From contig CAWEXP010000008.1 of the NCBI GenBank assembly GCA_963813065.1, positions 9,289 to 73,288 of the forward strand: a DNA stretch of 64,000 nt, given 5' to 3'. Both the position numbers and the translations under genes were made by a program. Numbering within the stretch: the stretch's first letter is position 1; the number at the start of each line of letters is the position of its first letter. This document shows positions 2,369 to 43,270 of the stretch, piece by piece. The stretch comes from Candidatus Kaiserbacteria bacterium. Lineage in GTDB: Bacteria; Patescibacteriota; Minisyncoccia; Phycocordibacterales; Phycocordibacteraceae. Under the pieces are notes generated by a model that did not search any database, was not told where the DNA came from, and was given only the letters and a program-made list of their open reading frames with translations.

Positions 2369-3136
2369 TCAAGCAATGAGTTGTAGCCAATCAGCGAGCG
2401 AGAGATCTTCGGCACGCGCTTTTTCAGGGATAGTGCCCGCATCGAGACCCGCACCTTCGAGATTCTTGCGGACGAACTTGCGCTTGTGCGCGAAGCCCGC
2501 ATGGAGATAGTCAAAAAACTTTTTTTCGACAACGGGTGATGAGAAATGTTTGCGCGAAATATTTTTAATCGAGAGTACCGCCGAATCTACGTTGGGTGCG
2601 GGCACAAAAGCACCACGCGGTACGGTGAACTCATATTTCGGCTCGCCGTATACTTTCACTGAGAGCGCGAGAATGTTTCCTTTTTTCTCTCGCGCAATGC
2701 GCTCTGCAACTTCTTTTTGCACGAGCACCACGATGCGACTCGGTTGGCTCTCTGATGCGAGAAACTTACGGAAGATGTCACCGGTCAGGTAATAGGGAAT
2801 GTTCGCGACGAACGCATAGCCCGCGGGGAGTGTGCTCGGGTCGAAGGTGCGGATGTCGCCCTGCACTAATTTTAATTTCCCACTCGCGATTTCTTCAGCG
2901 AAGGTACCGTGTAACTGCTGGAACAGTTCTGGATCAGCTTCAACCGCAACAACGCGGCCCACCCTTTGCAACAAAGGTCGGGTTAACATGCCGGTCCCTG
3001 GCCCAATCTCGAGCACAGTGTCGGCGGGAGTGAGCTCGGCAGAATCAGCGATGCGTTCCGCAATCCGCGCGTGCATCAAGAAATTTTGTCCCAAACTTTT
3101 TTTCGCGCGTATCATACGATAATCGCATCTTCCCAC
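2369..3136 (-). CDS. rsmA: 16S rRNA (adenine1518/1519-N6)-dimethyltransferase RsmA/KsgA
   Basis: LGQNFLMHARIAERIA...VLEIGPGTGMLT SAM-binding motif. Start may be the internal Met (MIRAKKSLGQNFL). Confidence 0.9.
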   Translation of the reverse strand: MGRCDYRMIRAKKSLGQNFLMHARIAERIADSAELTPADTVLEIGPGTGMLTRPLLQRVGRVVAVEADPELFQQLHGTFAEEIASGKLKLVQGDIRTFDPSTLPAGYAFVANIPYYLTGDIFRKFLASESQPSRIVVLVQKEVAERIAREKKGNILALSVKVYGEPKYEFTVPRGAFVPAPNVDSAVLSIKNISRKHFSSPVVEKKFFDYLHAGFAHKRKFVRKNLEGAGLDAGTIPEKARAEDLSLADWLQLIA

Positions 3137-5091
3137 TCTCCTTCTTCATATTCAATATGGTGGCCACCCATAGAGCGGAGAAATGAAGACGGCTCGGCAA
3201 CGAAGTCACTCCCATAAATTTTCCGAATGCGCGCGAGCGTGAGTACGAGTCGTGTTTTCGCGCGCGTCATCGCGACATAGAAAAGTCTCCGCTCCTCCTC
3301 TTCGTCGCGGTCCGCATCGTTGCCCATGCCTTGGTGCGGGAACAGTCCTTCTTCCATCCCCGCGACGAAGACCGTATCGAATTCCAAACCTTTCGCCGCG
3401 TGTACCGTCATCATGGTGACACCCCTAGACGGCTCTTGCGAGCCGTCGGGCGACCCGCCTTCGGCGGGTTTAGCCTTTTTCTCTGGACGATCCAATTCAT
3501 CCTGGTCGCCCGCGAGCGCAGTCTCGGCGAGAAAGGCCGCGATGCCCTCTTTGCCGGGCAGAGCATCGTGACGCGTCGCGAGCGTCGCCAGTTCCTGTAT
3601 GTTCTCGAATCGTTCGCGATCTTCTTCGCTCCCCTCGCCCATCTTCACCAATCCGCTTTTTTCCAGCACGAGCTTCACGAATGCTGAGGGCACCAACTTC
3701 TCGCTCGCGCGTTCGAGTTCAGCAAGAATTTTTTCAAACGCCTCGACCTTCGCGAGCTCGCCTGCGCGGAGCTCGTCGCGCTTGCCCGTCGCCATCTTTG
3801 CGAGCAAAACTTTCCCGATACCGCGTGGCGGCGAGCCCGCCGCGCGGATTCGATCGCTCGCGCGCGCCGGTTCGAGCGCGAGTCGCATCCACGCGAGCGC
3901 GTCCTTCACTTCTTTCCGTTCAAAAAATCTCGTGCCGAGCAATTTGTACGGCACACCCGCGCGCAAGAGTCCTTCTTCGAGTGCCCGCGATTGGAAGTTG
4001 GTTCGGAATAATATCGCGACGGTCTCCGGCTTCTCGCCCGCGCGCATGAGCGATTTTATTCTCTGCGCGATCCACTGCGCCTCTTGCTCGGCATTCACGG
4101 CAACATGCACGAGAATTTTTTCTCCCGCCGGATTATCTGTCACCGATTTTTTCTCTTTTCTATTTTTATTTTCCTCAATAACCGAATTCGCCGCATCGAC
4201 AATCGTCTTCGACGAACGATAATTGTGTTCGAGGATAATCGTCTCGGCGCCCGGATACCGCTCCTCGAATTCCAAAATATTTTCCATCTTCGCACCGCGC
4301 CACCCGTAGATTGATTGATCACCATCACCAACAACAAAAATATTTTTGTGTTTCTCGGCGAGCATGGCCGCGAGTTTTTCTTGCAGACGATTCGTATCTT
4401 GATATTCGTCGATGTGGATATACTGCCAGCGCGCTTGGGCGAGCGCGCGGACGTCGGCGTGTTCTTCGAGCAGTCGCACCGGGAGCGCGATGAGGTCGTC
4501 GAAGTCGAGCGCTTTTTCTTCTTTCAATACCTGCTCATACTTCCGCCACGCCTCCGCCGCGATCCGACCGCCGAAACTGCTACGGCCAAATTTCTCTGCG
4601 AACTCACTCACGCGCAGACCCTCCCCTTTCGCCTTCGAGATTCTGCCGAGTACCGCGCGCGGCGACAATTCTTTTGCCTCGACATCGAGCGCCTTCAGCG
4701 CTTGCCCAATCGCGCGCTCCGAGTCATCGCGATCGTAGATAGAAAAATAGCGCGGAAGCCCGATGGCATTGCCGTATTTCTCCAAGAGTTCCCGGCCCAG
4801 TCCATGAAAAGTTGCCACAAAAGGCATTCCGTTTGTTATCTGGTGCTTGGAGCTTGGTGCTTCCGCGTCCAACATCTTGTGGACGCGGTCTCGCATCTCG
4901 CGGGCGGCCTTGTTGGTGAAGGTGACGGCAAGAATTTCATGTGCAGGCACGCCCTGCCGGATAAGGTGATAGATCCGCGTCGCGAGGACGCGCGTTTTCC
5001 CGCTCCCGGCACCGGCAAGCACCGCGACCGGGCCCGAGGTTGCGAGGACCGCCCTTTTTTGCGCTTCATTCAATCCTTCGAGGTAATTCAC
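3112..5091 (-). CDS. uvrD: UvrD/PcrA-family ATP-dependent DNA helicase
   Basis: Walker A AGAGSGKT near the N-terminus and UvrD-family helicase motifs throughout its 659 aa. Confidence 0.9.
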   Translation of the reverse strand: MNYLEGLNEAQKRAVLATSGPVAVLAGAGSGKTRVLATRIYHLIRQGVPAHEILAVTFTNKAAREMRDRVHKMLDAEAPSSKHQITNGMPFVATFHGLGRELLEKYGNAIGLPRYFSIYDRDDSERAIGQALKALDVEAKELSPRAVLGRISKAKGEGLRVSEFAEKFGRSSFGGRIAAEAWRKYEQVLKEEKALDFDDLIALPVRLLEEHADVRALAQARWQYIHIDEYQDTNRLQEKLAAMLAEKHKNIFVVGDGDQSIYGWRGAKMENILEFEERYPGAETIILEHNYRSSKTIVDAANSVIEENKNRKEKKSVTDNPAGEKILVHVAVNAEQEAQWIAQRIKSLMRAGEKPETVAILFRTNFQSRALEEGLLRAGVPYKLLGTRFFERKEVKDALAWMRLALEPARASDRIRAAGSPPRGIGKVLLAKMATGKRDELRAGELAKVEAFEKILAELERASEKLVPSAFVKLVLEKSGLVKMGEGSEEDRERFENIQELATLATRHDALPGKEGIAAFLAETALAGDQDELDRPEKKAKPAEGGSPDGSQEPSRGVTMMTVHAAKGLEFDTVFVAGMEEGLFPHQGMGNDADRDEEEERRLFYVAMTRAKTRLVLTLARIRKIYGSDFVAEPSSFLRSMGGHHIEYEEGEWEDAIIV

Positions 5092-7555: not shown

Positions 7556-8362
7556 ATGCAGAAAGCGCACGAGCAAATGCGGGAGCGAATAATTGAAACG
7601 CTTGCGGAAGGACCGCGGGAGAAGGTGGCCCTGCGCGATGAGGTCGTCGGCACCAAGCTCACGGTGCAGGGATTCTACAAAGCGCTTGCGAGATTGCGCG
7701 CCGAAGAGGTAGTGACGGTTCACAAAGGGTCCGTCAGTCTCGCGGTCGTGTGGATCCAACACCAAATGCGGCGCTTAGAGGAGATGGCGAGCGTGTATGG
7801 CATCCCGGCATATCGGAGCTATTTCGGCTCGCTGAAGAATGGCAAGAGGCTGTCTTTCACCTTTAAAAATTTGCGTGAGCTCGATCTCTTCTGGACCCAG
7901 GCGGCGCTTATCGCGATTGAGGGCGCGCCAAAGGACACGCCCGTTATTTCATTTCTCCCCCACGACTGGTTCGATGTCGTGCGCCCAAGCAGTTCCGAGA
8001 TTTGGTTCAAGATGCTAGGCAAACGGAATCCACACGTGAACGTCATCACGTACGCGACCCGAGAAGAAAAGAAATTGAGCGAGCACCCGGGTGTGACCAA
8101 GATCGAGAACATGTTTGGCGAGAATCCGCTCCAGCAAAAAGAATCGGACTATGTGAATATGATTGGTGATTTAATTTTCGAAGTGAAGCTCGATGAATCG
8201 GTTCTCTCGGGAATCAGAAACGCGATGCGCGGCGAGCCAGTCGACATAAACAAGCTAACCGCGAAGACGGGCGTCTTCAAACTCTCCATCAAGCGCGACC
8301 CCGCAAAAGCATTGGCTCTTAAAAAGAAAATCCAAAAGTATTTCTCCATTCGCCTCTTTTAA
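7556..8362 (+). CDS. winged-HTH regulator-like protein, paralog family A
   Basis: Paralog of 6300..7130 and 22138..22950 (shared LDLFW, PHDWF, KALALKKKIQKYF motifs). Divergently arranged with 6300..7130. Confidence 0.6.
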   Translation: MQKAHEQMRERIIETLAEGPREKVALRDEVVGTKLTVQGFYKALARLRAEEVVTVHKGSVSLAVVWIQHQMRRLEEMASVYGIPAYRSYFGSLKNGKRLSFTFKNLRELDLFWTQAALIAIEGAPKDTPVISFLPHDWFDVVRPSSSEIWFKMLGKRNPHVNVITYATREEKKLSEHPGVTKIENMFGENPLQQKESDYVNMIGDLIFEVKLDESVLSGIRNAMRGEPVDINKLTAKTGVFKLSIKRDPAKALALKKKIQKYFSIRLF

Positions 8363-8376
8363 ACTAAAAGTTTAAT
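8362..8376. repeat. right copy of the 15-bp inverted repeat (aactaaaagtttaat)
   Basis: Begins at the stop codon of 7556..8362. Exact reverse complement of 7539..7553. Confidence 0.7.
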
Positions 8377-8474
8377 TATGGTCGTTTGATGACTGTTTCT
8401 TTTACTTTTATTCACATTCGCATAAATCTGCCCGTAGGAAGTCTGGGTGATCATTTATTACGAAGGAGGATGAC

Positions 8475-9290
8475 GTGCTCAAGGAAGAAGAATTCGATTG
8501 GTGGAGTGAGCGAGTTACGAACGAGATCTACCTCTCGACCCACCGCGCGGACTGGTGGAAGTTTTGCGGAATTGTTGCTGAGTTGCTGGCTCCGCAAGAA
8601 AATATGATTGATGTCGGGACCGGCGATGGGCATACGCTCTGGCAAATCGTTTCCCACGCATCGACTATGGACACATTCCGTATCAAACGAATCGATCTAC
8701 TCGAACCGAGTGGAGCTGGGCTTCATTGTGCTGTACGACGTTGTTGCGAGCTTCCGACGTTCTCCTTCAGCGCATATCAAGCGCGTTTCGATCAGTTTGT
8801 AGACTACCAGAGAAGACACGTCGAGACGGGACAGATTCCCAGACAGTATGACGCACTCTTTGCCAGCCACGTGAACTACTACCTTGGTGCCGCGGACACC
8901 GTACAAGGACGAGGCAGATACTTCGCGGCGCTTGACGCAATGACAGACCTCGCGCGCACGGTCATTCTCGTGACCGCACCGCGTGAGAGCGACTACTACA
9001 AAATGGTATCGAATCCGTTCGGAAATTATGTCTATAGCGCTGTGGTTGCGGCACACTACCGCTCACGCGGATTCCAGGTTGAGGTGACTGGTACGACGAT
9101 GCGTTTCTACGTGGAACATGTAAACCAGAGTCGACATGAAGCAGTGGTGCTCTGGAAGTTCTTCAACAACACTGAGCGTCAGCCTACCAACGCTGAGCTC
9201 TCGGCGTTTATCACGAACGCAAATCGCGTGAAAGATGGAGATGGAAATATAAATTTTCGCGATGACATTCTCGTCGTCACTGCTCAGTGA
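8475..9290 (+). CDS. putative SAM-dependent methyltransferase-like protein
   Basis: GTG start with AGGAGG 5 nt upstream. Motif-I-like IDVGTGDGHTL. Terminator downstream. Confidence 0.45.
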   Translation: MLKEEEFDWWSERVTNEIYLSTHRADWWKFCGIVAELLAPQENMIDVGTGDGHTLWQIVSHASTMDTFRIKRIDLLEPSGAGLHCAVRRCCELPTFSFSAYQARFDQFVDYQRRHVETGQIPRQYDALFASHVNYYLGAADTVQGRGRYFAALDAMTDLARTVILVTAPRESDYYKMVSNPFGNYVYSAVVAAHYRSRGFQVEVTGTTMRFYVEHVNQSRHEAVVLWKFFNNTERQPTNAELSAFITNANRVKDGDGNINFRDDILVVTAQ

Positions 9291-9306
9291 AACACTCTAT
9301 ACCTTG

Positions 9307-9333
9307 CCGCCCGATGAAATCGGGCGGTTTTTT
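9307..9333 (+). terminator. Rho-independent terminator
   Basis: ccgcccgat-gaa-atcgggcgg stem followed by TTTTTT. Confidence 0.6.
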
Positions 9334-9352
9334 ATTCAAAACCAAACAAGCC
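9333..9352. repeat. direct repeat DR-L (tattcaaaaccaaacaagcc), a duplicate of the comM 3' terminus
   Basis: Matches 10406..10425 at 19 of 20 positions. Its reverse complement encodes G-L-F-G-F-E-stop, identical to the comM C-terminus. Confidence 0.7.
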
Positions 9353-9365
9353 TTTGCAGTGAAAT

Positions 9366-10199
9366 TTATAAGTTGAGATGATTTCTTAAATCTGTATGCG
9401 ATATTTTAAGACCTTGATCTGTTGCGTAATTCAAACGCACAGCACCGCCAGGCAGTAGTTTCCCATTTTCTTTTAAAAAAGAAACATTTACCACTCGCTT
9501 CCCAAGGTCTTTTACTGCGTCAACAGCGGGAACATAGTCCTGATCACCAGACAGTATTACTGCCACATCATAAATATCCTTTAATTTCACGAGATCCGTG
9601 GCCAATTTTACGTCGACAGCTTTTTCCTTACCTAATCGTTTTTCAAAAAGATCATAGCGAATCGAGCCAGAACGTCGAAATTCAATTGCTGTAAAATCTC
9701 CTGCGATTTTATTTTGTATATAGGTCCAACCATCAAATCTACCCTTCATGTGTACTTGATTCTTCTCTAGTGCAGAAAGCATTCTGTCCATTCGATCTTT
9801 TTGAGCCGCATCATTTTGGCCCTTCGACAAATCTTCTGCCCATGGCGGATAGCTTGTTAGAATCTGCTTTAACAAAATTCGATCTTTACGAGCTGTATTT
9901 AAGTTGTACGGCGCACAATCCAGATTAGAGACTACATACCAATACGTTCTGACGCGATACGCATCTTTACCCGCTACCTCACAGGCAATCCAGTCGAAAA
10001 ATTTAGTCCAGTCTGCGTTTTTGGGTAAATAATCCCACTCATTAAAAATAGGCGTTGGGAACAGCTCAACTATCGAATGCCGAAGATTTTCTCCGTCAAC
10101 AAAAATACAGACTCGTTTACCGTGGTTGTGATCGGTGGGCATGAGCAAAGGCGGCTCGACGGCCGCCTTTGTTATATCACATTCTTTCCCCGAATCCAC
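9366..10199 (-). CDS. NYN/LabA-like domain protein (predicted RNase), 277 aa
   Basis: VCIFVDGENL ... VILSGDQDYVPAV motifs typical of NYN/LabA (PIN-like). AT-rich codon usage unlike its neighbours. Confidence 0.7.
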   Translation of the reverse strand: MDSGKECDITKAAVEPPLLMPTDHNHGKRVCIFVDGENLRHSIVELFPTPIFNEWDYLPKNADWTKFFDWIACEVAGKDAYRVRTYWYVVSNLDCAPYNLNTARKDRILLKQILTSYPPWAEDLSKGQNDAAQKDRMDRMLSALEKNQVHMKGRFDGWTYIQNKIAGDFTAIEFRRSGSIRYDLFEKRLGKEKAVDVKLATDLVKLKDIYDVAVILSGDQDYVPAVDAVKDLGKRVVNVSFLKENGKLLPGGAVRLNYATDQGLKISHTDLRNHLNL

Positions 10200-10322
10200 G
10201 GGGGTTACCCGTATGTTATGCGCGTGTTGTCTTTAAGTCAAGATGAAATTATCAGGATGTGCATATCGTTAAAATATAGAAATATCTAAGGAACAATTTC
10301 CTGTTGTTCTGTGAGACACCTT

Positions 10323-10358
10323 GAACCACCTCAGAATAAAAATATTCTGAGGTGGTTC
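10323..10358. other. perfect 16-bp stem-loop (gaaccacctcagaata-aaaa-tattctgaggtggttc) between comM and the cassette gene
   Basis: Read directly from the sequence. No flanking U-tract on either strand. Confidence 0.6.
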
Positions 10359-10404
10359 GCATCTGAACCGGTTATCAAGTGATGTGGTTCGTCTAAAATC
10401 CCAA

Positions 10405-11970
10405 CTATTCAAATCCAAACAAGCCACGCGGACGATACTGGAGGGCCTCGTGCACGAACGCGGGGACAACCGAGTCGGCGCCCGCGAGGTCGGCGATGGT
10501 ACGCGCGACGCGCATGGTGCGATGGTACGCGCGCGGCGATAGTTTCATCCGTGCGGCGGCTTGCGTCAACGTCTCTTTGCTCGCGGTGGTGAAGCCGCTC
10601 TTCTCGTCGAGTTCGCGGCTCGTGAGGTGCGCGTTTGTTGCACCCTTCTTCCCTGTTCTCTTTTCTGCGCGAGCGCGCGCGGCAAGAACGCGCGCGCGAA
10701 CTTTTTCTGAGGATTCTCCGGTGGCAAGTTTCGAGAGTGTCTCGTGCGGGACAAGCGGTACTTCGATCCAGAGATCAAGGCGGTCAACAATCGGCCGCGA
10801 GATCTTGCGTGCCTGACGCAACGCGGCGCGCACATTCGTGACGGCGTCTTCAGAGAGCGTCTCGGCCGGATTCATCGCCGCGACAATCATGCAATCCGCC
10901 GGGAAGGTGATGGTCGCGCGAGCGCGCGAGACCGTGACGATTCTGTCTTCGAGCGGTTGGCGCAGAGCCTCGAGCGCCCGCGCCTCGAACTCGGGGAATT
11001 CGTCGAGAAATAAAACGCCCTTGTGTGCGAGCGTCACCTCACCCGCCTTGGGGAATGCGCCGCCGCCCACGATGGCGACGTGCGAGACCGAGTGGTGCGG
11101 CGCACGGAAGGGTGGCCAGTACACCGCTTCGCCTTCTTTTAATAATCCCGCAGTCGAGTGTATCGCGGTTACTTCGAGCACTTCGTCGTTGGTGAGGGGT
11201 GGGAGGATGCCGGACAAAGCGCGGGCGAGCATCGTCTTGCCGGTGCCCGGCGGACCATAGAAAACGATATTGTGCCGACCCGCGGCGGCGATTTCGAGTG
11301 CACGCTTAGCGCTCTCCTGCCCCTTCACATCCGCGAGGTCGATGGCGGGCGGAGGCGGCACCGCGACGCGCTCGCGCACGAGCCGCGGTAATCTTTTTTC
11401 ACCTTTCAAATGTTGTAAAAGATCGGCCAAAGTCTCGGGCGCATAGACCGCGACACCCTCGGCGAGCAAGGCTTCGCGCGCGTTGCCTGGCGGGACATAC
11501 ACTGTTTTCACGCCTTTTCTCTTGGCGGCCAAGACCTGTGGCAAGACGCCGCGCGTCGAGCGGAGCGTGCCGTCGAGTGCAAGTTCTCCTGCAAACAATG
11601 CTTCTTCTTCGAGTGCTTTCAAATCGTCAGCCGCGATCAGATACGCGAGCGCGAGCGGCAAGTCATAATGCGAACCTTCTTTCTTCAAGTCCGCGGGCGA
11701 GAGCGAGAGAATTATTTTTTTATTTTGTTGCTTGGGCGGCTTGTAGCCCGAGTGACGAATCGCGGCGCTGACGCGATCGCGCGCTTCCTCGACTGCCTTG
11801 TCGGCGAGCCCGACGACGGAGAACGCATGGAGTCCGCGCGTGAGATCGGCCTCGACCGATACGAGTTCGGCCGCCGCACCGACCGGTTGTGCGGCAAGCG
11901 TCTTCGCGTAGCCGTGTTTCGGTTGCGCGACTTTTTTCTGCGCGGGTTGTGGAGAGTGCGAGCTCGACAC
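10405..11970 (-). CDS. comM: ComM/YifB-family Mg-chelatase-like AAA+ ATPase
   Basis: N-terminal Lon-like domain, Walker [11 protein letters not shown], Walker [11 protein letters not shown]. 521 aa. Confidence 0.85.
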
Positions 11971-32385: not shown

Positions 32386-32457
32386 TCTAGTGCTAGTTCA
32401 AGTGACCGAGGTGCTCCGTTGGTAATAGTAGCTACCCAACGAGCTATACTCTCAGAT

Positions 32458-32943
32458 ATGGAGCTCTGGCTCAACTTTGTAGTTGTCGGTCTCGTCGCCC
32501 TTTTTCTTTTTATGGTCTGCGTATTCCGTGAACAGAGATATTCTGATGCGCCCCGTCTTCTTTTGCTAGGAATTATTACCGGTGTGCCGCTCGGTTTACT
32601 TTCTGACTTCGCGTTGCGGGGAACATATACATACCCGCTCGGATACGGATTACTCTATTTAATCCTTAACGCCGCGGTCGTGTACGGACTCTTCGTAGCT
32701 ACTGTCTTGGCTTTGCAACGGGTTCGGTTCTTACGTTTTTCTATCTGGATTATCGCAATTATGGCGGTATACGAAATTACTAACCACGTCTTTCCTGTAT
32801 GGGGTTACAAAGTCTCGCCGTTTCTCGGATGGCTCTCGTTCGTTCTGGTGGGTTATTTTGCGACCGCGATTTTTATTGCGCTAATTGGTCATATGATTTT
32901 CGGATACAGATTTCAACTTATTAACGACTTACTCAAGAAATGA
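32458..32943 (+). CDS. polytopic membrane protein (about 161 aa)
   Basis: Four or five TM helices. I moved the start to Met 32458 so that it no longer overlaps tRNA-Gly. Confidence 0.45.
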   Translation: MELWLNFVVVGLVALFLFMVCVFREQRYSDAPRLLLLGIITGVPLGLLSDFALRGTYTYPLGYGLLYLILNAAVVYGLFVATVLALQRVRFLRFSIWIIAIMAVYEITNHVFPVWGYKVSPFLGWLSFVLVGYFATAIFIALIGHMIFGYRFQLINDLLKK

Positions 32944-33089
32944 TCTTTTTACAGAAGATCCGACTCTGTCTCAGATTTTTCTGACCGAAATGCCTCACTT
33001 GCTCGATGGGGAAGCCGCGAAAGCGGCCTTGCAGGAGAGGCAAAGAAAGTGTACGGTGCGAGAAGAATCTCGATCTTGAAGGAGGCAAT

Positions 33090-35781: not shown

Positions 35782-36054
35782 TTACTTTACGGCATCCTTG
35801 AGCGCCTTGGCGGGGCGGAACTTGGCCGTGCGGGTCGCCGCGATGCGAATGGTCTCGCCGGTGCGCGGATTGCGCCCCTCGCGAGCCGGGCGCGCCTTCG
35901 TGACGAAGATGCCGAGCCCCGCGATCGAGACTTCGTCGCCCTTCTTGAGCCCCTCATGGATAGACTCGATGACCGTCTCGACGGCGCGCTCCGCGTCGGC
36001 CTTGGTCGAGCCGAGAACTTCCTGCACCTTGCCTGCGATATCGTTCTTGTTCAT
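35782..36054 (-). CDS. hup: DNA-binding protein HU
   Basis: MNKNDIAGKV...GLGIFVTKARPAREGRNPRTGETIRIAATRTAKFRPAKALKDAV is the canonical HU/IHF fold sequence. Confidence 0.9.
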   Translation of the reverse strand: MNKNDIAGKVQEVLGSTKADAERAVETVIESIHEGLKKGDEVSIAGLGIFVTKARPAREGRNPRTGETIRIAATRTAKFRPAKALKDAVK

Positions 36055-36183
36055 AGTGCGTATAAGTTAGTAACAAAAGAAGTATAGGATGTGCGCTTTT
36101 TTGCGCAATGCCCCTAGACAACTCTCGGGGATAACGCGAAATGAGTAACCTGTTGATAGCACAACGCCACGCACTACCGGGAA

Positions 36184-37185
36184 TTGCACAAATATACGAT
36201 TCCCGGTAAAATAAGCCACATTATGAAGATACACCTGCCTAACAGCGCCTTTCTCGGGAATTTAGACTCCTTCTTGCGAAAGTTTGATCCGAGCAATCCA
36301 AAGGAGCTCCGAATAACCGCAAATCCGAATTGGGTATCGGTGCACCCTGTCGTTCTCACAATGATTGCCGCGCTTGGGCAGATTGTTCCACCTGGAAATA
36401 TCGCCTTCGAGATTATGGAAGCGAAATCGAAGCACTACTTTCAACGGATGGGACTTTTCACTATGCTGGGACTCGATTCCGGCATGTCCATAACTGAACA
36501 CGACTCTACCGGGAGATTCATTCCGCTCACCCAAATAAAAAATTCTACCGAGCAAACGAATTTTATAAAAGAAATGGTGCCTCTTCTCCATCTTTCTCCA
36601 GAACACACTGAGCCCATACGCTATATCCTTGGGGAACTCATACGCAACGTTCTTGAACATGCAGATTCGCCTCATGGAGCCATCGTGGCGGCACAATACT
36701 ATCAAAAAACCAATACCATTCGTATTGGTATTTGTGACGTGGGTGTAGGAATTACCAAGACGATCAGACAATCACACCATGCTCTTGACGACCTACAGGC
36801 ACTACGTCTCGCCTTAACGCCGGGGATAACGGGTACAACGAAAAGAGAGGGTGGTACGCAACAGAATGCCGGTGCAGGACTTTTTTTCGTAAAATCGATT
36901 GCCGCCGTGAATGGAGACTTTTTTGACATTTATAGTGGGGACGCTTTCTATAAGCTACTGCGTCAAGATTCGTCCAAGAAAAACGCTCTCAACGCCGATC
37001 CCATGGATGATCGTCATTCCGCGATGAATGAATATCCGTATTGGCAAGGGGTTGCAATTGGTATCGACATGAAACTTGACGCGCACGAAAAGTTTACCGC
37101 CCTCTTGGGACACATACGAAATGTATATGCGAAAGCAGTGCGCGACCGCAAGAAAGTACATTATAAAAAACCTTTATTCATATGA
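36184..37185 (+). CDS. GHKL-family (histidine-kinase-like) ATPase, SpoIIAB/anti-sigma-kinase-like C-terminal domain
   Basis: N box ELIRNVLEHA, G1 box ICDVGVGI, G2 box GAGLFFV. Low-GC region. 333 aa with an uncharacterised N-terminal half. Confidence 0.65.
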   Translation: MHKYTIPGKISHIMKIHLPNSAFLGNLDSFLRKFDPSNPKELRITANPNWVSVHPVVLTMIAALGQIVPPGNIAFEIMEAKSKHYFQRMGLFTMLGLDSGMSITEHDSTGRFIPLTQIKNSTEQTNFIKEMVPLLHLSPEHTEPIRYILGELIRNVLEHADSPHGAIVAAQYYQKTNTIRIGICDVGVGITKTIRQSHHALDDLQALRLALTPGITGTTKREGGTQQNAGAGLFFVKSIAAVNGDFFDIYSGDAFYKLLRQDSSKKNALNADPMDDRHSAMNEYPYWQGVAIGIDMKLDAHEKFTALLGHIRNVYAKAVRDRKKVHYKKPLFI

Positions 37186-37472
37186 CCTCTATAAAAATAA
37201 AAGAACTTGCGGGAGTTTTTGCCGAAAATAAAGACGTGGCGCAACAAGCGCGCATTACAACACTCCTCCCCGCCCTTAAAAAAGGAGAGGCTGTCATCCT
37301 AGATTTCGAAGGGGTCGATGGTGCAACGCAATCCTTCGTCCATGCTCTCATTAGCGAACCGTTCCGCATCTATAAAGAAAAAACTTTGGATCTAATCCGT
37401 TTCAAAGACTGTAATAGCTCCATCAGGCAAATAATAACTATCGTGACGGAGTATATGCAGGAAGCGGAGTAA
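37182..37472 (+). CDS. STAS-like (DUF4325-like) small protein, translationally coupled to the ATPase
   Basis: ATGA overlap with the upstream gene. Ninety-six aa with an LDFEGV-containing motif reminiscent of anti-sigma-factor-antagonist/STAS-like domains. Confidence 0.5.
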   Translation: MTSIKIKELAGVFAENKDVAQQARITTLLPALKKGEAVILDFEGVDGATQSFVHALISEPFRIYKEKTLDLIRFKDCNSSIRQIITIVTEYMQEAE

Positions 37473-37478
37473 TTTTAA

Positions 37479-39008
37479 CTAGCGGGCGAACTCGACGACG
37501 CGATTCTCACGGATGATATTCACCTTGATTTCGCCCGGATATTTGAGCTCTTGCTGGATGCGCTCGGCGATGGCGCGCGCCATCTTGTGCATCGCGAGGT
37601 CCGAGACCTTGCCCGGGTTCACGAAGACGCGGATTTCGCGCCCTGCGGAGATTGCGTACACCTTTTCCACACCCTCGAAGCCCGCGGCGAGGCGCTCGAG
37701 GTCGCCCAAGCGCTCGAGATACCGCTCGACCGTGTCGCGGCGGGCTCCCGGGCGGCCACCGCTGATAGCGTCGGCGACCTGGACGATGATTGCCTCGGGC
37801 GTTTCGTACGGATATTCGTCATGATGCGACTGCATCGCCTGGATAATGCGTTTATCCATGCCGAATTTCTCGAGAATGCGGCGACCGATCTCGACATGCG
37901 TGCCCTGGACCTCATGGTCGACCGCCTTACCGATGTCGTGGAGGAGCGCACCCGTGCGTGCGATCTGCGGGTCAGCGCCGAGCTCGGTGGCGAGCATGCC
38001 CGCGATATGCGCCATCTCGACCGAGTGCTGGAGCACATTCTGGCCGTAGCTGGTACGGAAGTAGAGCCGACCGAGGAGCGCGATGAGTTTGGGGTCGAGC
38101 CCTACCACACCCGCTTCGTACGCGGCTTCTTCGCCCTTCTGCTTCACCATCCCCTCGACCTCGGCACGCGTTTTCTCCACAGTCTCCTCAATCTTGGCGG
38201 GCTGGATACGCCCATCGGCGATCAACTTTTCGAGTGCGAGCTTCGCGATGTGGCGACGGAGCGGATCGAAGGAGGAGAGCGCGATGCGATCCGGCGCGTC
38301 GTCGATAATGACGTCCACGCCCGTTGCGCGCTCGAACGCTTTAATATTGCGGCCTTCCTTGCCAATGATTTTGCCCTTCACCTCCTCAGAAGGAATCTGC
38401 ACCGCGAGCGACATGGTCTCGGCGTTGACTGCGTTGCCCAGGCGGTGAATGGCCGTGGTGAGGATACTGCGCGCCTTCTCCTCGAGGCGTTCGCGGCCGT
38501 GGGCATCGAGCTTCTGGATGCGGCCGAGAATGGCCTCCTCGTGCGAACGCTCAACCTCGGCAATTAATTCTTCACGTGCCTTCTCGGCCGAGAGGTTGCT
38601 CGCGCGCTCGAGGATTTTGGTACGTTCAGCGATGAGCTCATCGGCGCTCCTCTTGGCACGCGCGGCCTCCTGTTCACGATTCTTCACCTCTGCCTCGTTG
38701 TCGTCGAGGTCACTCTGGCGGCCGTCGAGATACTCCTCGCGCGCGGCGAGGCGTTCTTCGAGCTTATTCAATTTCTCTTCGCGCTCCTCGATGGGCGCGA
38801 GGCGTTCAGTCTCGAGCACCTCGCCGCGATAGGTGGCATCGGCGATAATCTTGTTCGCGGCCTCCTTGGCCTGGAGCATTTTCTGCTTGATCTCGAGCTC
38901 TACCGAGCCGCGAGAGGCGAGGCCGATGAGCACGCGCAGGACATAGCCGAGCAAGATGCCACCCGCTCCCGAGAGCGCGAGCAGTATGAGGATTATTTTT
39001 ATTGACAT
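37479..39008 (-). CDS. rny: ribonuclease Y
   Basis: N-terminal TM helix, coiled coil, KH domain, and HD domain (HSVEMAHIAGMLATELG...LLHDIGKA). Confidence 0.9.
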   Translation of the reverse strand: MSIKIILILLALSGAGGILLGYVLRVLIGLASRGSVELEIKQKMLQAKEAANKIIADATYRGEVLETERLAPIEEREEKLNKLEERLAAREEYLDGRQSDLDDNEAEVKNREQEAARAKRSADELIAERTKILERASNLSAEKAREELIAEVERSHEEAILGRIQKLDAHGRERLEEKARSILTTAIHRLGNAVNAETMSLAVQIPSEEVKGKIIGKEGRNIKAFERATGVDVIIDDAPDRIALSSFDPLRRHIAKLALEKLIADGRIQPAKIEETVEKTRAEVEGMVKQKGEEAAYEAGVVGLDPKLIALLGRLYFRTSYGQNVLQHSVEMAHIAGMLATELGADPQIARTGALLHDIGKAVDHEVQGTHVEIGRRILEKFGMDKRIIQAMQSHHDEYPYETPEAIIVQVADAISGGRPGARRDTVERYLERLGDLERLAAGFEGVEKVYAISAGREIRVFVNPGKVSDLAMHKMARAIAERIQQELKYPGEIKVNIIRENRVVEFAR

Positions 39009-41412: not shown

Positions 41413-42891
41413 TTATTCGTCGGACGCGCTCTTGTCGCGCGACTCTTCGGTATCGACAATAGAATTGTCTTCGGTCTGCATCAGCTCCTCCTCAGCAGGG
41501 AGCTCGTCCTTCTCCGGCGCGACGACTACTTCGATAAGCTCGTCGCTCTCGGTCGGCAGAACGCCAGCCTCTTTCGCGAGCAGGTCGGGGTCGGTCGGTT
41601 CAACCGTAGGAATCTCATCGGCTAAAGCCTGCTCTGCAGGCTCGCCCGACGCGCCAGCTGGCGCGTCTAGGGGAACGGTCACGACTTCGCCGTCGCTCTC
41701 GGCGACCTCGGTGCCGCCGGTGGAGACGATGTCGATGTTCCAGCCGGTCAGCTTGGCGGCGAGGCGAACGTTCTGGCCGCCACGACCAATCGCAAGCGAC
41801 TGCTCATCCTCAGAGACGGTCACGGTCGCGCGGTGGCCAGCCTCGTCGAGCTCCACCGTAAGTGGTGTCGCGGGGGAGAGCGCTTCCTTAATAAATTCGC
41901 GTGAGTCGTCGTTCCACTCGATGATGTCGATGCGCTCGCCACCGAGCTCGCTCATCACCGTCGAGACGCGCACGCCGCGCTGGCCGACAAGCGAACCGAC
42001 GGGGTCGACATGTGGATCGAGTGAGGCAATCGCAATCTTGGTGCGACTGCCGGGCTCGCGCGCGATGCCCTTCACTTCGAGCGAACCGGCCGCCAGCTCG
42101 GGCGCCTCCTGCTCAAAGAGCTTCACGACAAACTTGGGGTGTGCACGCGAGAGGCGCAGGTACACGCCGCGGAATCCTTCTTCCACATTGTAGAGATACG
42201 CGCGGATGCGCTCGCCCGGGCGATAGCGCTCGCCGGGAATCTGTTCCTCGTAGGGGATAAGGCCGGTAGCGCGGCCAAGGTCGACGAAAATCGCCCCACG
42301 CTCCATGCGCTGGACGATGCCACCGACAATCTCGCCCTTCTTCTCGCCAAATTCCTCGAGCATCGAGAGCTTCTCGGCCTCGCGCACCTTCTGGATGACC
42401 GTCTGCTTGGCAGTCTGGGCGGCAATGCGGCCGAAGTCCTCCTGTGGTTCGAGCGGGAAGACGATTTCATCGCCCAAAACGGCGCCACGCTTGATCAGCT
42501 TGGCATCGGCGAGGAGGATGTGCTTCTCGGGGTCGAAGCGCGGGAGCTCGCCCTCGGCAAGCTGTTCCTCTTCGTCACGATGGAAATGCGGACGCTCTTC
42601 GACTACCTCCTCCGACTCGTCGGGGAAGCGAACGGTGCTCTCGTCGACGACGGTTTTCACCTGCTCGAAAGAGACGGTGCCGGTCGAGAGGTCAATCCGC
42701 GACCGGATGACCTGCCCGCGCTTGCCGTACTCACGCTTGTACGCGGTAGCCATGGCGCTCTCGATGGCGTCGATCATCGTCGCGCGACTGATGCCGCGAT
42801 CCTCGAATTCTCCCAGAACTGCGTTGATTGTTTTGAGGTCTAACATATGGATTGTGTATGTCTCACCTTGTAAAAAGAAAGTCCGGCGCAC
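41413..42891 (-). CDS. nusA: transcription termination/antitermination factor NusA with acidic C-terminal extension
   Basis: N-terminal domain, S1 domain (IVGGIVQRMERGAIFVDLG), two KH domains. The start is probably the Met at 42846. Confidence 0.9.
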   Translation of the reverse strand: MRRTFFLQGETYTIHMLDLKTINAVLGEFEDRGISRATMIDAIESAMATAYKREYGKRGQVIRSRIDLSTGTVSFEQVKTVVDESTVRFPDESEEVVEERPHFHRDEEEQLAEGELPRFDPEKHILLADAKLIKRGAVLGDEIVFPLEPQEDFGRIAAQTAKQTVIQKVREAEKLSMLEEFGEKKGEIVGGIVQRMERGAIFVDLGRATGLIPYEEQIPGERYRPGERIRAYLYNVEEGFRGVYLRLSRAHPKFVVKLFEQEAPELAAGSLEVKGIAREPGSRTKIAIASLDPHVDPVGSLVGQRGVRVSTVMSELGGERIDIIEWNDDSREFIKEALSPATPLTVELDEAGHRATVTVSEDEQSLAIGRGGQNVRLAAKLTGWNIDIVSTGGTEVAESDGEVVTVPLDAPAGASGEPAEQALADEIPTVEPTDPDLLAKEAGVLPTESDELIEVVVAPEKDELPAEEELMQTEDNSIVDTEESRDKSASDE

Positions 42892-43270
42892 CGGACAGTC
42901 AGTAGGAATAGGATAGCAGAAAGGAAAGGTTGCGTCAATAACGCCGAGAGGGTAGGGTGAGCACAGAAAGGAAGGTGTTGGATGGACGGGAAGAAAATAA
43001 TTTCGGTCATCGAGATGTACCAGCGCAAGCTTTCAGGGTGCGGCGTTATTCAAGAACGAATGGATCCTGGGAGGACCTTTCAAAGCTTATCTCAGGACGA
43101 ATTACTATCGCATGCTTTCTTTTTGTGTTCGTTTGCGAAGGAATACGCCGCCGATCCGGAAAAATTCGGCAAGGCAAATCGGCACCTTACCGCAATACAG
43201 ATGTGTCTCAGCTTCGCCGGTTGGTACACTCTTGAAGACTTGATGAATCATAATCGCCCTTGAGCATTGC
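42870..43270 (+). ncRNA. speculative RNase P RNA-like structured RNA. Alternative reading: an AT-rich CDS at 42982..43263.
   Basis: Motifs in the expected order: GAAAGTCCGG (42877..42886, P4 5' strand), TAACGCC (42939..42945), AGGGTGAGCACAGAAAGG and AGGGTGCGG (42952 and 43035). A downstream CGCCGGTT (43215) could pair with the P4 5' strand leaving a bulged U. Followed by the terminator at 43277. Not verified. Confidence 0.2.

Follow-up and report, generated by a model that had tools for sequence, protein, structure and literature searches.

What could a kinase-like gene and a bare STAS-domain gene accomplish together when they lie as a low-GC insertion between hup and rny? The question is raised by the genome of a Candidatus Kaiserbacteria bacterium, of which a stretch of 64,000 nucleotides (contig CAWEXP010000008.1, positions 9,289 to 73,288; hereafter the window) was analyzed. 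The insertion encodes a GHKL-containing protein and a DUF4325 STAS protein, labelled K and S, respectively. The two are quite probably a kinase-substrate pair homologous to the bacterial CapKS and VapKSC systems. In the explanation we favor, they form an acquired, self-contained cassette, in which K would be a Ser/Thr kinase composed of a STAS-like sensor domain and a GHKL catalytic domain, and S would be its dedicated STAS substrate. New here is a cassette-specific promoter palindrome that is common to bacterial and archaeal K-S loci.

Organization of the K-S cassette

The cassette consists of the following parts, given in window coordinates.

About 36145 to 37478, no strand given: inserted low-GC cassette (leader, K and S), between the rny stop codon and the hup upstream spacer, delimited by empty-site alignment
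36175 to 36184, + strand: operator left arm TACCGGGAAT, a perfect inverted repeat with 36199-36208
36184 to 36189, + strand: -35-like hexamer TTGCAC, situated between the operator arms
36199 to 36208, + strand: operator right arm ATTCCCGGTA, overlapping the -10-like TAAAAT at 36207-36212
36223 to 37185, + strand: gene K, 320 amino acids, STAS-like plus GHKL kinase-like ATPase, a CapK/VapK homolog by hhalign
36223 to 36597, + strand: K residues 1-125, STAS-like N-terminal domain, from the secondary structure of the AlphaFold2 (AF2) model and alignment to the STAS regions of VapK and CapK
36598 to 37083, + strand: K residues 126-287, GHKL domain, from invariant columns and the Pfam HATPase_c match at residues 143-245
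37084 to 37182, + strand: K residues 288-320, basic C-terminal helix and tail (…AVRDRKKVHYKKPLFI), with the AF2 helix at 290-314
37182 to 37472, + strand: gene S, 96 amino acids, single-domain DUF4325 STAS protein by Pfam, a VapS homolog without the C-terminal inhibitory region of VapS
37326 to 37334, + strand: S codons T49-Q50-S51, candidate phospho-acceptor site at the N-terminus of helix alpha2

Both reading frames lie on the + strand, and the start codon of S overlaps the stop codon of K by ATGA. This translationally coupled arrangement, with a downstream frame of 96 codons at 37182-37472, had been described in the initial annotation and is confirmed here. The upstream frame can also be read from a TTG at 36184, giving the 333 residues of that annotation, and in this respect it needs correction. 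Homologs of K have 317-322 residues and begin with MKIHLPNS, the identical database protein (P0001) has 320 residues, and the TTG forms part of the -35-like TTGCAC within the conserved operator; K therefore starts at ATG 36223 and comprises 320 amino acids. The family of the pair contains 2,956 clusters at 90% identity and 2,516 representatives at 50% identity. Compared with relatives, nonsynonymous divergence (dN) is 0.14-0.34 and synonymous divergence (dS) is saturated, so that dN/dS is usable for a qualitative statement only. Judged from their sequences, K and S are genuine genes under selection and not chance reading frames.

Protein K combines a STAS-like and a GHKL domain

The AF2 model of K has a predicted local distance difference test score (pLDDT) of 83.5 and a predicted template modelling score (pTM) of 0.87. 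The N-terminal domain (residues 1-125) consists of alternating beta and alpha elements, with an invariant P42 and the motifs LPNSAFLGN and YFxRMGLF. It had been regarded as an uncharacterised domain of ~150 residues; it is a ~125-residue domain homologous to the STAS domains of CapK and VapK, aligning with residues 88-~190 of CapK and 39-~140 of VapK. A reading of this domain as a DUF4325 paralog was rejected (hhalign probability 1.6%). No match was obtained with the N-domain profile against the PDB, with the isolated N- and C-terminal parts against Pfam, or with the K sequence against PDB chains. The aromatic residues F/W/Y10 and W37 are conserved and, by inspection only, may be equivalent to CapK W68 or VapK F54.

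The GHKL domain carries the N box (E138, N142), G1 box (D172xGxG176) and G2 box (G217xG219) that had already been recognized in the sequence, and these are invariant in 32-37 homologs. N142 is invariant across 37 sequences, down to 27% identity, and aligns with the catalytic asparagine N218 of CapK in the motif SELIGN(218)VRDH. The lid reads PGITGTT. Profile searches, which had been suggested as a check, placed S above the DUF4325 cut-off, and K fell just under the gathering thresholds of HATPase_c (E 2.4e-5) and HATPase_c_2 (E 4.9e-5; 23.8 bits against a cut-off of 27.4). The NCBIfam model TIGR01925 (spIIAB) gave E 0.094 and 12.6 bits against a cut-off of 135, and phrog_3364 matches K with E 4e-26. 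By Foldseek, the top PDB matches of the K model are Topo VI-B and SpoIIAB, both with a weak E of ~1e-4; template modelling (TM) scores are 0.66 for SpoIIAB (SpoIIAB-normalised) and 0.25-0.33 for Topo VI-B. UsfX and RsbW are further fold matches. At the C-terminus, the helix 288-320 has a net charge of +7 and an isoelectric point of 10.5. It is specific to the family, as the alignment with VapK stops at K residue 287, and is a candidate DNA-binding element.

Protein S is a minimal STAS domain encoded next to K

S matches Pfam PF14213 (DUF4325) with E 2.8e-11 and 43.4 bits, the cut-off being 23. Its AF2 model (pLDDT 96.4) shows a minimal beta-alpha STAS-like unit, and the best PDB matches by Foldseek are STAS domains of SLC26 transporters, RsbS, the stressosome and SpoIIAA, with probabilities of 0.77-0.97 yet E values of only 0.02-0.25 and macrodomains interleaved among them. 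The Pfam match and the fold matches agree with the STAS-like nature first proposed for this protein. With 96 residues and DUF4325 only, S has no output domain.

The block G-A-T49-Q50-S51-F52-V-H54-A-L-I-S58 is invariant and lies at the start of helix alpha2 (residues 50-71); T49, Q50, S51 and F52 are invariant in 32 S sequences. In SpoIIAA, the phospho-site S58 likewise lies at the N-terminus of a helix. The hhalign alignment places VapS S48 on Q50 of S, flanked by the invariant T49 and S51, so that either of these two could be the acceptor. CapS S54-F55 aligns locally to S51-F52 in an alignment that is not significant. By analogy, T49 and S51 are candidate phosphorylation sites of S.

The two genes are tightly linked. 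In the 80 loci most similar to that of the window (58-80% K identity, from GTDB species representatives), S directly follows K in 79, mostly with a 4-nt overlap, and the 80th locus runs off the end of its contig. The same order holds in all 8 distant representatives examined (30-49% identity), and natural fusions of K and S into a single polypeptide occur (P0252, P0376, P0379, P0385 and phrog_5816). In three distant K-S lineages (30-49% identity) a third, unannotated gene stands after S (L182 2767-3555, L183 1371-2565 and L179 2824-3699); it overlaps S in L182 and L183 and has no Pfam matches. These third genes are candidate effectors that may be analogous to VapC.

Distant K-like proteins (22-27% identity, 334-343 residues, HATPase_c under gathering) without a detectable DUF4325 gene downstream were seen on the Acinetobacter baumannii plasmid p2OC074 (L011 3878-4909), the Phaeobacter plasmid pP129_f (L012 4782-5801) and a Coprococcus phage (L013 3791-4795). 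One of these genes adjoins BrnT/BrnA, and another adjoins a recombinase and an N6 methylase. A literature search on DUF4325 itself turned up only three passing mentions, which concern PIN.4 VapC genes coupled to DUF4325 genes and an open reading frame (ORF) of a Francisella prophage.

Relation to CapKS and VapKSC

CapKS and VapKSC are described as bacterial DNA-damage-sensing switches, for which single-stranded DNA (ssDNA) is the activating cue of both CapK and VapK (Chambers et al., EMBO J 2026; PMC13373217). Activated by ssDNA, CapK phosphorylates CapS at S54, upon which the CapS dimer dissolves and the adjacent immune operon is de-repressed. CapKS precedes such an operon in 348 of 443 cases (CBASS, Bub, Thoeris and others), and the winged helix-turn-helix (wHTH) domain of CapS binds palindromes in 'narrow' and 'wide' spacings and provides autoregulation (PMC13373217). 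VapK, a STAS-GHKL protein, is proposed to phosphorylate S48 of VapS, which consists of a STAS domain and a C-terminal helix, thereby freeing the PIN toxin VapC. VapS residues 94-116 are needed for VapC inhibition, and vapKSC protects Escherichia coli from one phage (PMC13373217).

We compared the VapK, VapS, CapK and CapS sequences, taken from the supplementary files of that paper, with the profiles of K (A3) and S (A2). The K profile aligns with VapK at a probability of 98.3% (E 1.8e-14; 241 columns, residues 23-287 against 39-292) and with CapK at 97.8% (E 8e-13), covering both domains. The S profile aligns with VapS at 88.5% (E 2.7e-6) over 88 columns, which span the whole STAS domain. VapS itself matches Pfam DUF4325 with E 2.7e-17. 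In the PDB, S found VapS (9z7o, 'Escherichia VapS', E 0.0039) only by profile and not by single-sequence search.

K-S shares with VapKSC the STAS plus GHKL kinase, the order of kinase gene and immediately following STAS gene, the DUF4325 assignment of VapS and S, a conserved hydroxyl residue at the N-terminus of alpha2, and a location in mobile or accessory DNA. In contrast to VapKSC, the K-S family has neither VapC nor another conserved third gene, S lacks the region of VapS 94-116, and K bears an additional basic C-terminal helix. The family furthermore occurs in archaea as well as bacteria, and its promoter palindrome has not been described for vapKSC. With CapKS, the pair shares the kinase-then-STAS order and the motifs YLNRLGFF/YFxRMGLF and SELIGNVRDH/GELIRNVLEH (CapK/K), and the narrow and wide palindromes of CapKS parallel the narrow and split operators of K-S. 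The wHTH of CapS and the N-terminal HTH of CapK, however, have no counterpart in S and K, and the pair is not followed by a conserved operon.

K-S thus displays the features of the kinase-STAS class, that is, a STAS plus GHKL kinase, an adjacent STAS gene, a conserved Ser/Thr at alpha2 and the catalytic Asn. It has neither form of output element, the wHTH of CapS or the C-terminal region of VapS with the vapC gene. On sequence grounds, it appears to belong with the CapKS/VapKSC class of switches while lacking the output part of both.

A related domain is found in the PADLOC model for DrmA of the DISARM system (PDLC02567), of which positions 75-257 match K residues 83-267 (E 2.8e-20). The N-terminal ~260 positions of this model are also matched by the fused protein P0252 (7.6e-20), CapK (8.5e-5) and VapK (3.4e-4). 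The K-like domain therefore also occurs fused to a defence helicase. Unlike DrmA, K has no helicase, its match is confined to the N-terminal ~260 positions of a model that has 1750, and no DISARM genes were found in the K-S neighbourhood. Standalone K proteins could be mislabelled as DrmA by PADLOC.

A promoter operator common to bacterial and archaeal loci

Alignment of the upstream DNA shows the palindrome TACCGGGAWTCCCGGTA, or a split form of it, within 200 bp of the K start in 81 of 85 loci. A scan allowing up to one mismatch returned 87 matches in 1.06 Mb of K-S loci, 84 of which fall at most 200 bp upstream of K, and none in 616 kb of related loci without the pair. The full palindrome does not occur elsewhere in the 64-kb window. 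In the window, the split arms bracket TTGCAC and abut TAAAAT. The typical bacterial layout comprises a palindrome, TTGACA, a palindrome overlapping the -10 element, ~11 nt, and the ATG. All 22 archaeal loci have a palindrome, a TATA box (TTTATAAAT-like) and a half-site at the start codon. A -35-like box (TTGAC/TTGCA) is present in 53 of 58 bacterial loci, and the TATA element in 0 of 58. Conservation of the operator across domains, together with exchange of the core promoter, indicates that a cassette-encoded protein reads the operator, and it is fairly likely that the operator serves autoregulation by that protein.

Diverged half-sites in the same layout are found in phage contigs (ATACCCGTAG/CTACGGGTAT around TTGACA) and in the distant lineage L179 (GTTACGTA/TACGTAAC); high-GC relatives at 40% identity or less have no such palindrome. 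The upstream copy of the palindrome lies upstream of the -35 or TATA box, and a reading of it as an RNA hairpin was rejected. A promoter consensus scan of the window gave TGCACA, 16 nt and TAAAAT, which alone is not above chance, and terminator and promoter consensus scans of the locus did not exceed shuffled expectation.

The -10 element TAAAAT ends 10 nt before the ATG of K, and a Shine-Dalgarno-like 4-mer precedes K in only 8 of the 80 loci. The short distance between the -10 or TATA element and the ATG suggests that K mRNAs are nearly leaderless, which would be compatible with expression in either domain.

Weak hints favor K over S as the putative operator binder, namely its basic tail and its residue changes where the operator differs. 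In three loci with an ACCGGA-type operator, K is changed at F10, G12, N13, N34, I132 and R299, G12 and N13 being invariant in all other K sequences examined. The phage lineage, too, departs from the family at four of these six positions (10, 12, 13, 34, 132, 299). In the ACCGGA-type loci the conserved positions of S are all unaltered, which makes K the better candidate.

Additional palindrome copies were observed at L059 2558-2575 (before the ORF 2623-3330) and L040 6949-6963. They stand in a promoter-like setting (TTGACT, palindrome, TAAAAAAT) before unannotated ORFs beside the K-S pair, and these ORFs have no Pfam matches. They are possible co-regulated cargo.

Insertion between rny and hup

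The flanking genes of the cassette are arranged as follows.

35782 to 36054, - strand: hup (HU), located directly downstream of rny in relatives
37479 to 39008, - strand: rny (RNase Y), convergent with S, stop codons 6 bp apart

The GC content of the pair is 45.8%, against 55.3% for the window, and lies in the lowest 1.1% of 1250-bp windows; at third codon positions it is 47%, compared with 78% in rny and 86% in hup. The pair also has a lower GC content than its flanks in 20 of 22 loci. We searched metagenomes with the RNase Y of the window for empty sites and obtained 57 informative relatives (55-82% RNase Y identity). In 56 of these, hup lies ~100-950 bp downstream of rny without K and S, and one carries the pair. 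Homology of the rny-hup spacer resumes at ~36142-36145 in the empty-site alignment and rny ends at 37479, placing the insert at ~36145-37478. It measures ~1.33 kb and comprises a 78-bp leader, K, S and 6 bp. The initial annotation had noted that the pair is richer in AT than hup and rny and had proposed horizontal acquisition from this; the former is borne out by the composition and the latter is seen directly in the empty sites.

Flanking direct repeats or a target-site duplication were not found at the cassette borders. An IS200/IS605-like or Xer-site reading is not supported, as palindromes occur only at the promoter, ~30 bp inside the left junction, and the S stop codon, 6 bp before rny, leaves no space for a right-end structure. 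In Kaiserbacteria-like genomes with the pair, it is always convergent to rny.

In Kaiserbacteria-like relatives, the stretch from hup to K-S (corresponding to 36055-36222 of the window) is a variable hot spot containing Fic, ParE, TrmB-family regulators and a radical SAM protein, with Y1 transposase and HicA/PhD genes nearby (L002 6643-9791, L004 5654-7789, L006 1620-7822). Within the rny-hup spacer, the window and every empty-site relative also share a conserved element, TGATTTCGCGCTATCC…ATTGCGCAAAAxGGCGCAxxTCCTATACTT (window ~36075-36142, - strand, upstream of hup), which presumably serves hup as its promoter or regulatory region.

A second low-GC island, in which the GC content of 1250-bp windows falls to a minimum of 41.8%, is located at 8150-10850 of the window. 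It includes two ORFs that have no Pfam matches (7556-8362 and 8475-9290, both + strand) and an NYN-domain protein (9366-10199, - strand), and adjoins a ComM/YifB-like Mg-chelatase ATPase (10405-11970, - strand). It may be another acquired segment. Short dips to 43-47% GC occur at 32400-33000 and 42800-43200.

Distribution and neighboring genes

The 80 loci come from uncultured organisms of both domains. Candidate phyla radiation (CPR)/Patescibacteria are represented by Kaiser-, Zambryski-, Saccharibacteria, Peregrini-, Gracili-, Moran-, Falkowbacteria and others. Further bacterial loci stem from Elusimicrobia, Omnitrophota, Margulis-/Saganbacteria and assorted metagenome-assembled genomes (MAGs), several of them labelled Gamma- or Deltaproteobacteria. 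DPANN and other archaeal MAGs (Nano-, Woese-, Aenigm-, Micr- and Iainarchaeota) account for 22 of the 80. On a crude neighbour-joining tree, these 22 sequences require at least ~6 domain switches, and identity reaches 78% in the closest match between an archaeal and a bacterial sequence. A K-S pair with 45% identity lies among the structural genes, between head and tail, of one bona fide phage contig, and phage and plasmid collections yielded only distant K-like matches at 22-32% identity.

All-versus-all BLASTP clustering of the ORFs of the 80 loci revealed no conserved third gene; the best cluster other than K and S, a generic ABC ATPase, occurs in 9 loci. Pfam and PADLOC scans of the 145 immediate neighbours showed no dominant family. 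These neighbours are a mix of housekeeping genes and a minority of mobile or defence genes, including Fic, integrase, PIN (2 of 145), AbiEii-like and AriA-like ATPases, type I/IIG restriction enzymes and SspH. Enrichment of defence and mobile genes is mild and non-systematic. By analogy, a signalling or defence-associated function, as initially suggested, would fit the characterised relatives.

Proposed mechanism

We postulate the following sequence of events. In the layout, as observed, K would be expressed from the cassette-borne promoter bracketed by the operator, on a near-leaderless mRNA, and S through ATGA coupling. A cassette protein would then bind the operator and autoregulate the cassette; K is the likelier one, acting through its basic C-terminal helix and/or the LPNSAFLGN motif. 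Activation would follow the example of CapK and VapK, with a nucleic-acid cue between the STAS-like and GHKL domains switching K on, and K phosphorylating S at S51 or T49, at the start of helix alpha2. To layout, autoregulation and activation taken together we assign a probability of about 0.5.

The output is the least certain step. Since S has no output domain and a conserved third gene is lacking, the phosphorylation-controlled complex is most likely K-S itself. Phosphorylation would most likely break this complex, in which S would serve as a pseudo-substrate or as a brake in the manner of an antitoxin. The cassette would be de-repressed and K freed for cellular targets or ATP burning, leading to growth arrest or defence. 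That K is the effector and S its antidote is a tentative proposal, rather less likely than not. A broader version is doubtful: the pair would be a minimal immune or addiction cassette for bacteria and archaea, K acting as sensor, sequence-specific autorepressor and effector, and S as phosphorylatable antidote. Needing no host-specific partner, it would be portable across domains, with leaderless K, coupled S and only the core promoter swapped (sigma-70 boxes or TATA box), and it might circulate among ultra-small CPR bacteria and DPANN archaea.

Several points weigh against the proposed mechanism. Kinase activity, phosphorylation, DNA binding, toxicity and phage protection are predictions for K and S. 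Both HATPase profiles remain below gathering for K, Topo VI-B ranks as high as SpoIIAB among its fold matches, all of them at E ~1e-4, and Pfam scans reveal no recognisable DNA-binding domain in K or S. The S profile does not match CapS significantly, and VapS S48 is placed on Q50 and not on a Ser or Thr. The overlap of the K residue changes with the phage lineage has a hypergeometric P of 0.07, with one clade per operator variant. Defence genes are a minority among the immediate neighbours, and only 4 IMG/VR contigs contain a relative. The pair also occupies the same site in Kaiserbacteria-like genomes down to ~71% K identity, and is thus not highly mobile on short time scales.

Alternative explanations

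K-S could instead be a trans-acting regulatory pair whose output is an unlinked protein or regulon, S sequestering a distant effector or the operator binder controlling other promoters, with no toxicity involved. CapKS offers a precedent as a pure regulator of another operon, and the extra operator copies before unannotated ORFs in L059 and L040, as well as the third gene overlapping S in L182 and L183, point the same way. However, the window contains no further full palindrome, only 3 of the 87 matches in 1.06 Mb lie away from the K promoter, and no partner gene accompanies the cassette. A host-specific unlinked partner is also hard to square with repeated transfer between bacteria and archaea at up to 78% identity, and we consider this explanation unlikely.

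In a second alternative, K would have no kinase activity and would instead be a DNA-binding, Topo VI-B/MORC-type GHKL ATPase whose target, clamped or bound, is the palindrome; S would serve as its STAS regulatory subunit. Because Topo VI-B ranks level with SpoIIAB for K at weak E values, an ATPase or clamp role is conceivable. The long ATP lid of K (PGITGTT…NAGAGLFF), the conserved palindrome, the basic C-terminal helix and the fusion of a K-like domain in the DISARM helicase model are in keeping with such a role. Against it stand the profile homology over both domains to CapK, a kinase by experiment, and the invariant Thr/Ser of S at the canonical STAS phospho-site. Moreover, K has no transducer domain, and its TM-scores to Topo VI-B are low compared with SpoIIAB. 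Taken together, this makes a non-kinase ATPase improbable.

The compact, autoregulated low-GC bicistron in intergenic DNA could also be a purely selfish toxin-antitoxin addiction cassette without a role in sensing or defence. Bicistronic layout and conserved promoter palindrome are type II toxin-antitoxin-like traits, and the variable region of relatives contains ParE, Fic and HicA. Nevertheless, K keeps a conserved STAS-like sensor domain and is homologous to kinases activated by ssDNA, which argues for signal dependence, and the cassette is stably syntenic within a clade. In practice this explanation overlaps with the mechanism proposed above; in its purely selfish form it is distinctly improbable.

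A classical anti-sigma switch, with K as SpoIIAB/RsbW and S as SpoIIAA/RsbV controlling an alternative sigma factor, is scarcely credible: the GHKL Ser-kinase and STAS substrate folds are shared (SpoIIAB, UsfX and RsbW for K; SpoIIAA and RsbS for S) and JGI labels homologs 'anti-sigma regulatory factor', but no sigma factor or PP2C phosphatase gene recurs beside the pair in the 80 loci, spoIIAA-AB and rsbV-W have the opposite gene order, K scores only 12.6 bits against spIIAB and carries an additional STAS-like domain at its N-terminus, and the 22 archaeal loci, with their TATA-box promoters, exclude such a role, since archaea have no sigma factors. The description, in the initial annotation, of a partner-switching-type pair in non-canonical order holds in that the kinase gene comes first, as in capK-capS and vapK-vapS, and does not hold for a switch of the SpoIIAB/SpoIIAA anti-sigma type.

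Implications

The published CapKS and VapKSC systems need an output part, either a wHTH or the VapC toxin, whereas the K-S family is reduced to a kinase and a bare STAS domain. In this reduced form it is nevertheless under strong purifying selection, its sequence clusters number in the thousands, and on several occasions it has moved between bacteria and archaea. This raises the question of what a kinase-STAS pair does without an effector, for which the cassette provides a compact test system of ~1.3 kb, two proteins and one operator. With the operator kept and the core promoter exchanged across domains, it represents a rare natural case of a regulated cassette re-fitted after inter-domain transfer. 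As a whole, the finding is relevant to the means of defence and conflict that CPR and DPANN organisms possess, a repertoire about which little is known.

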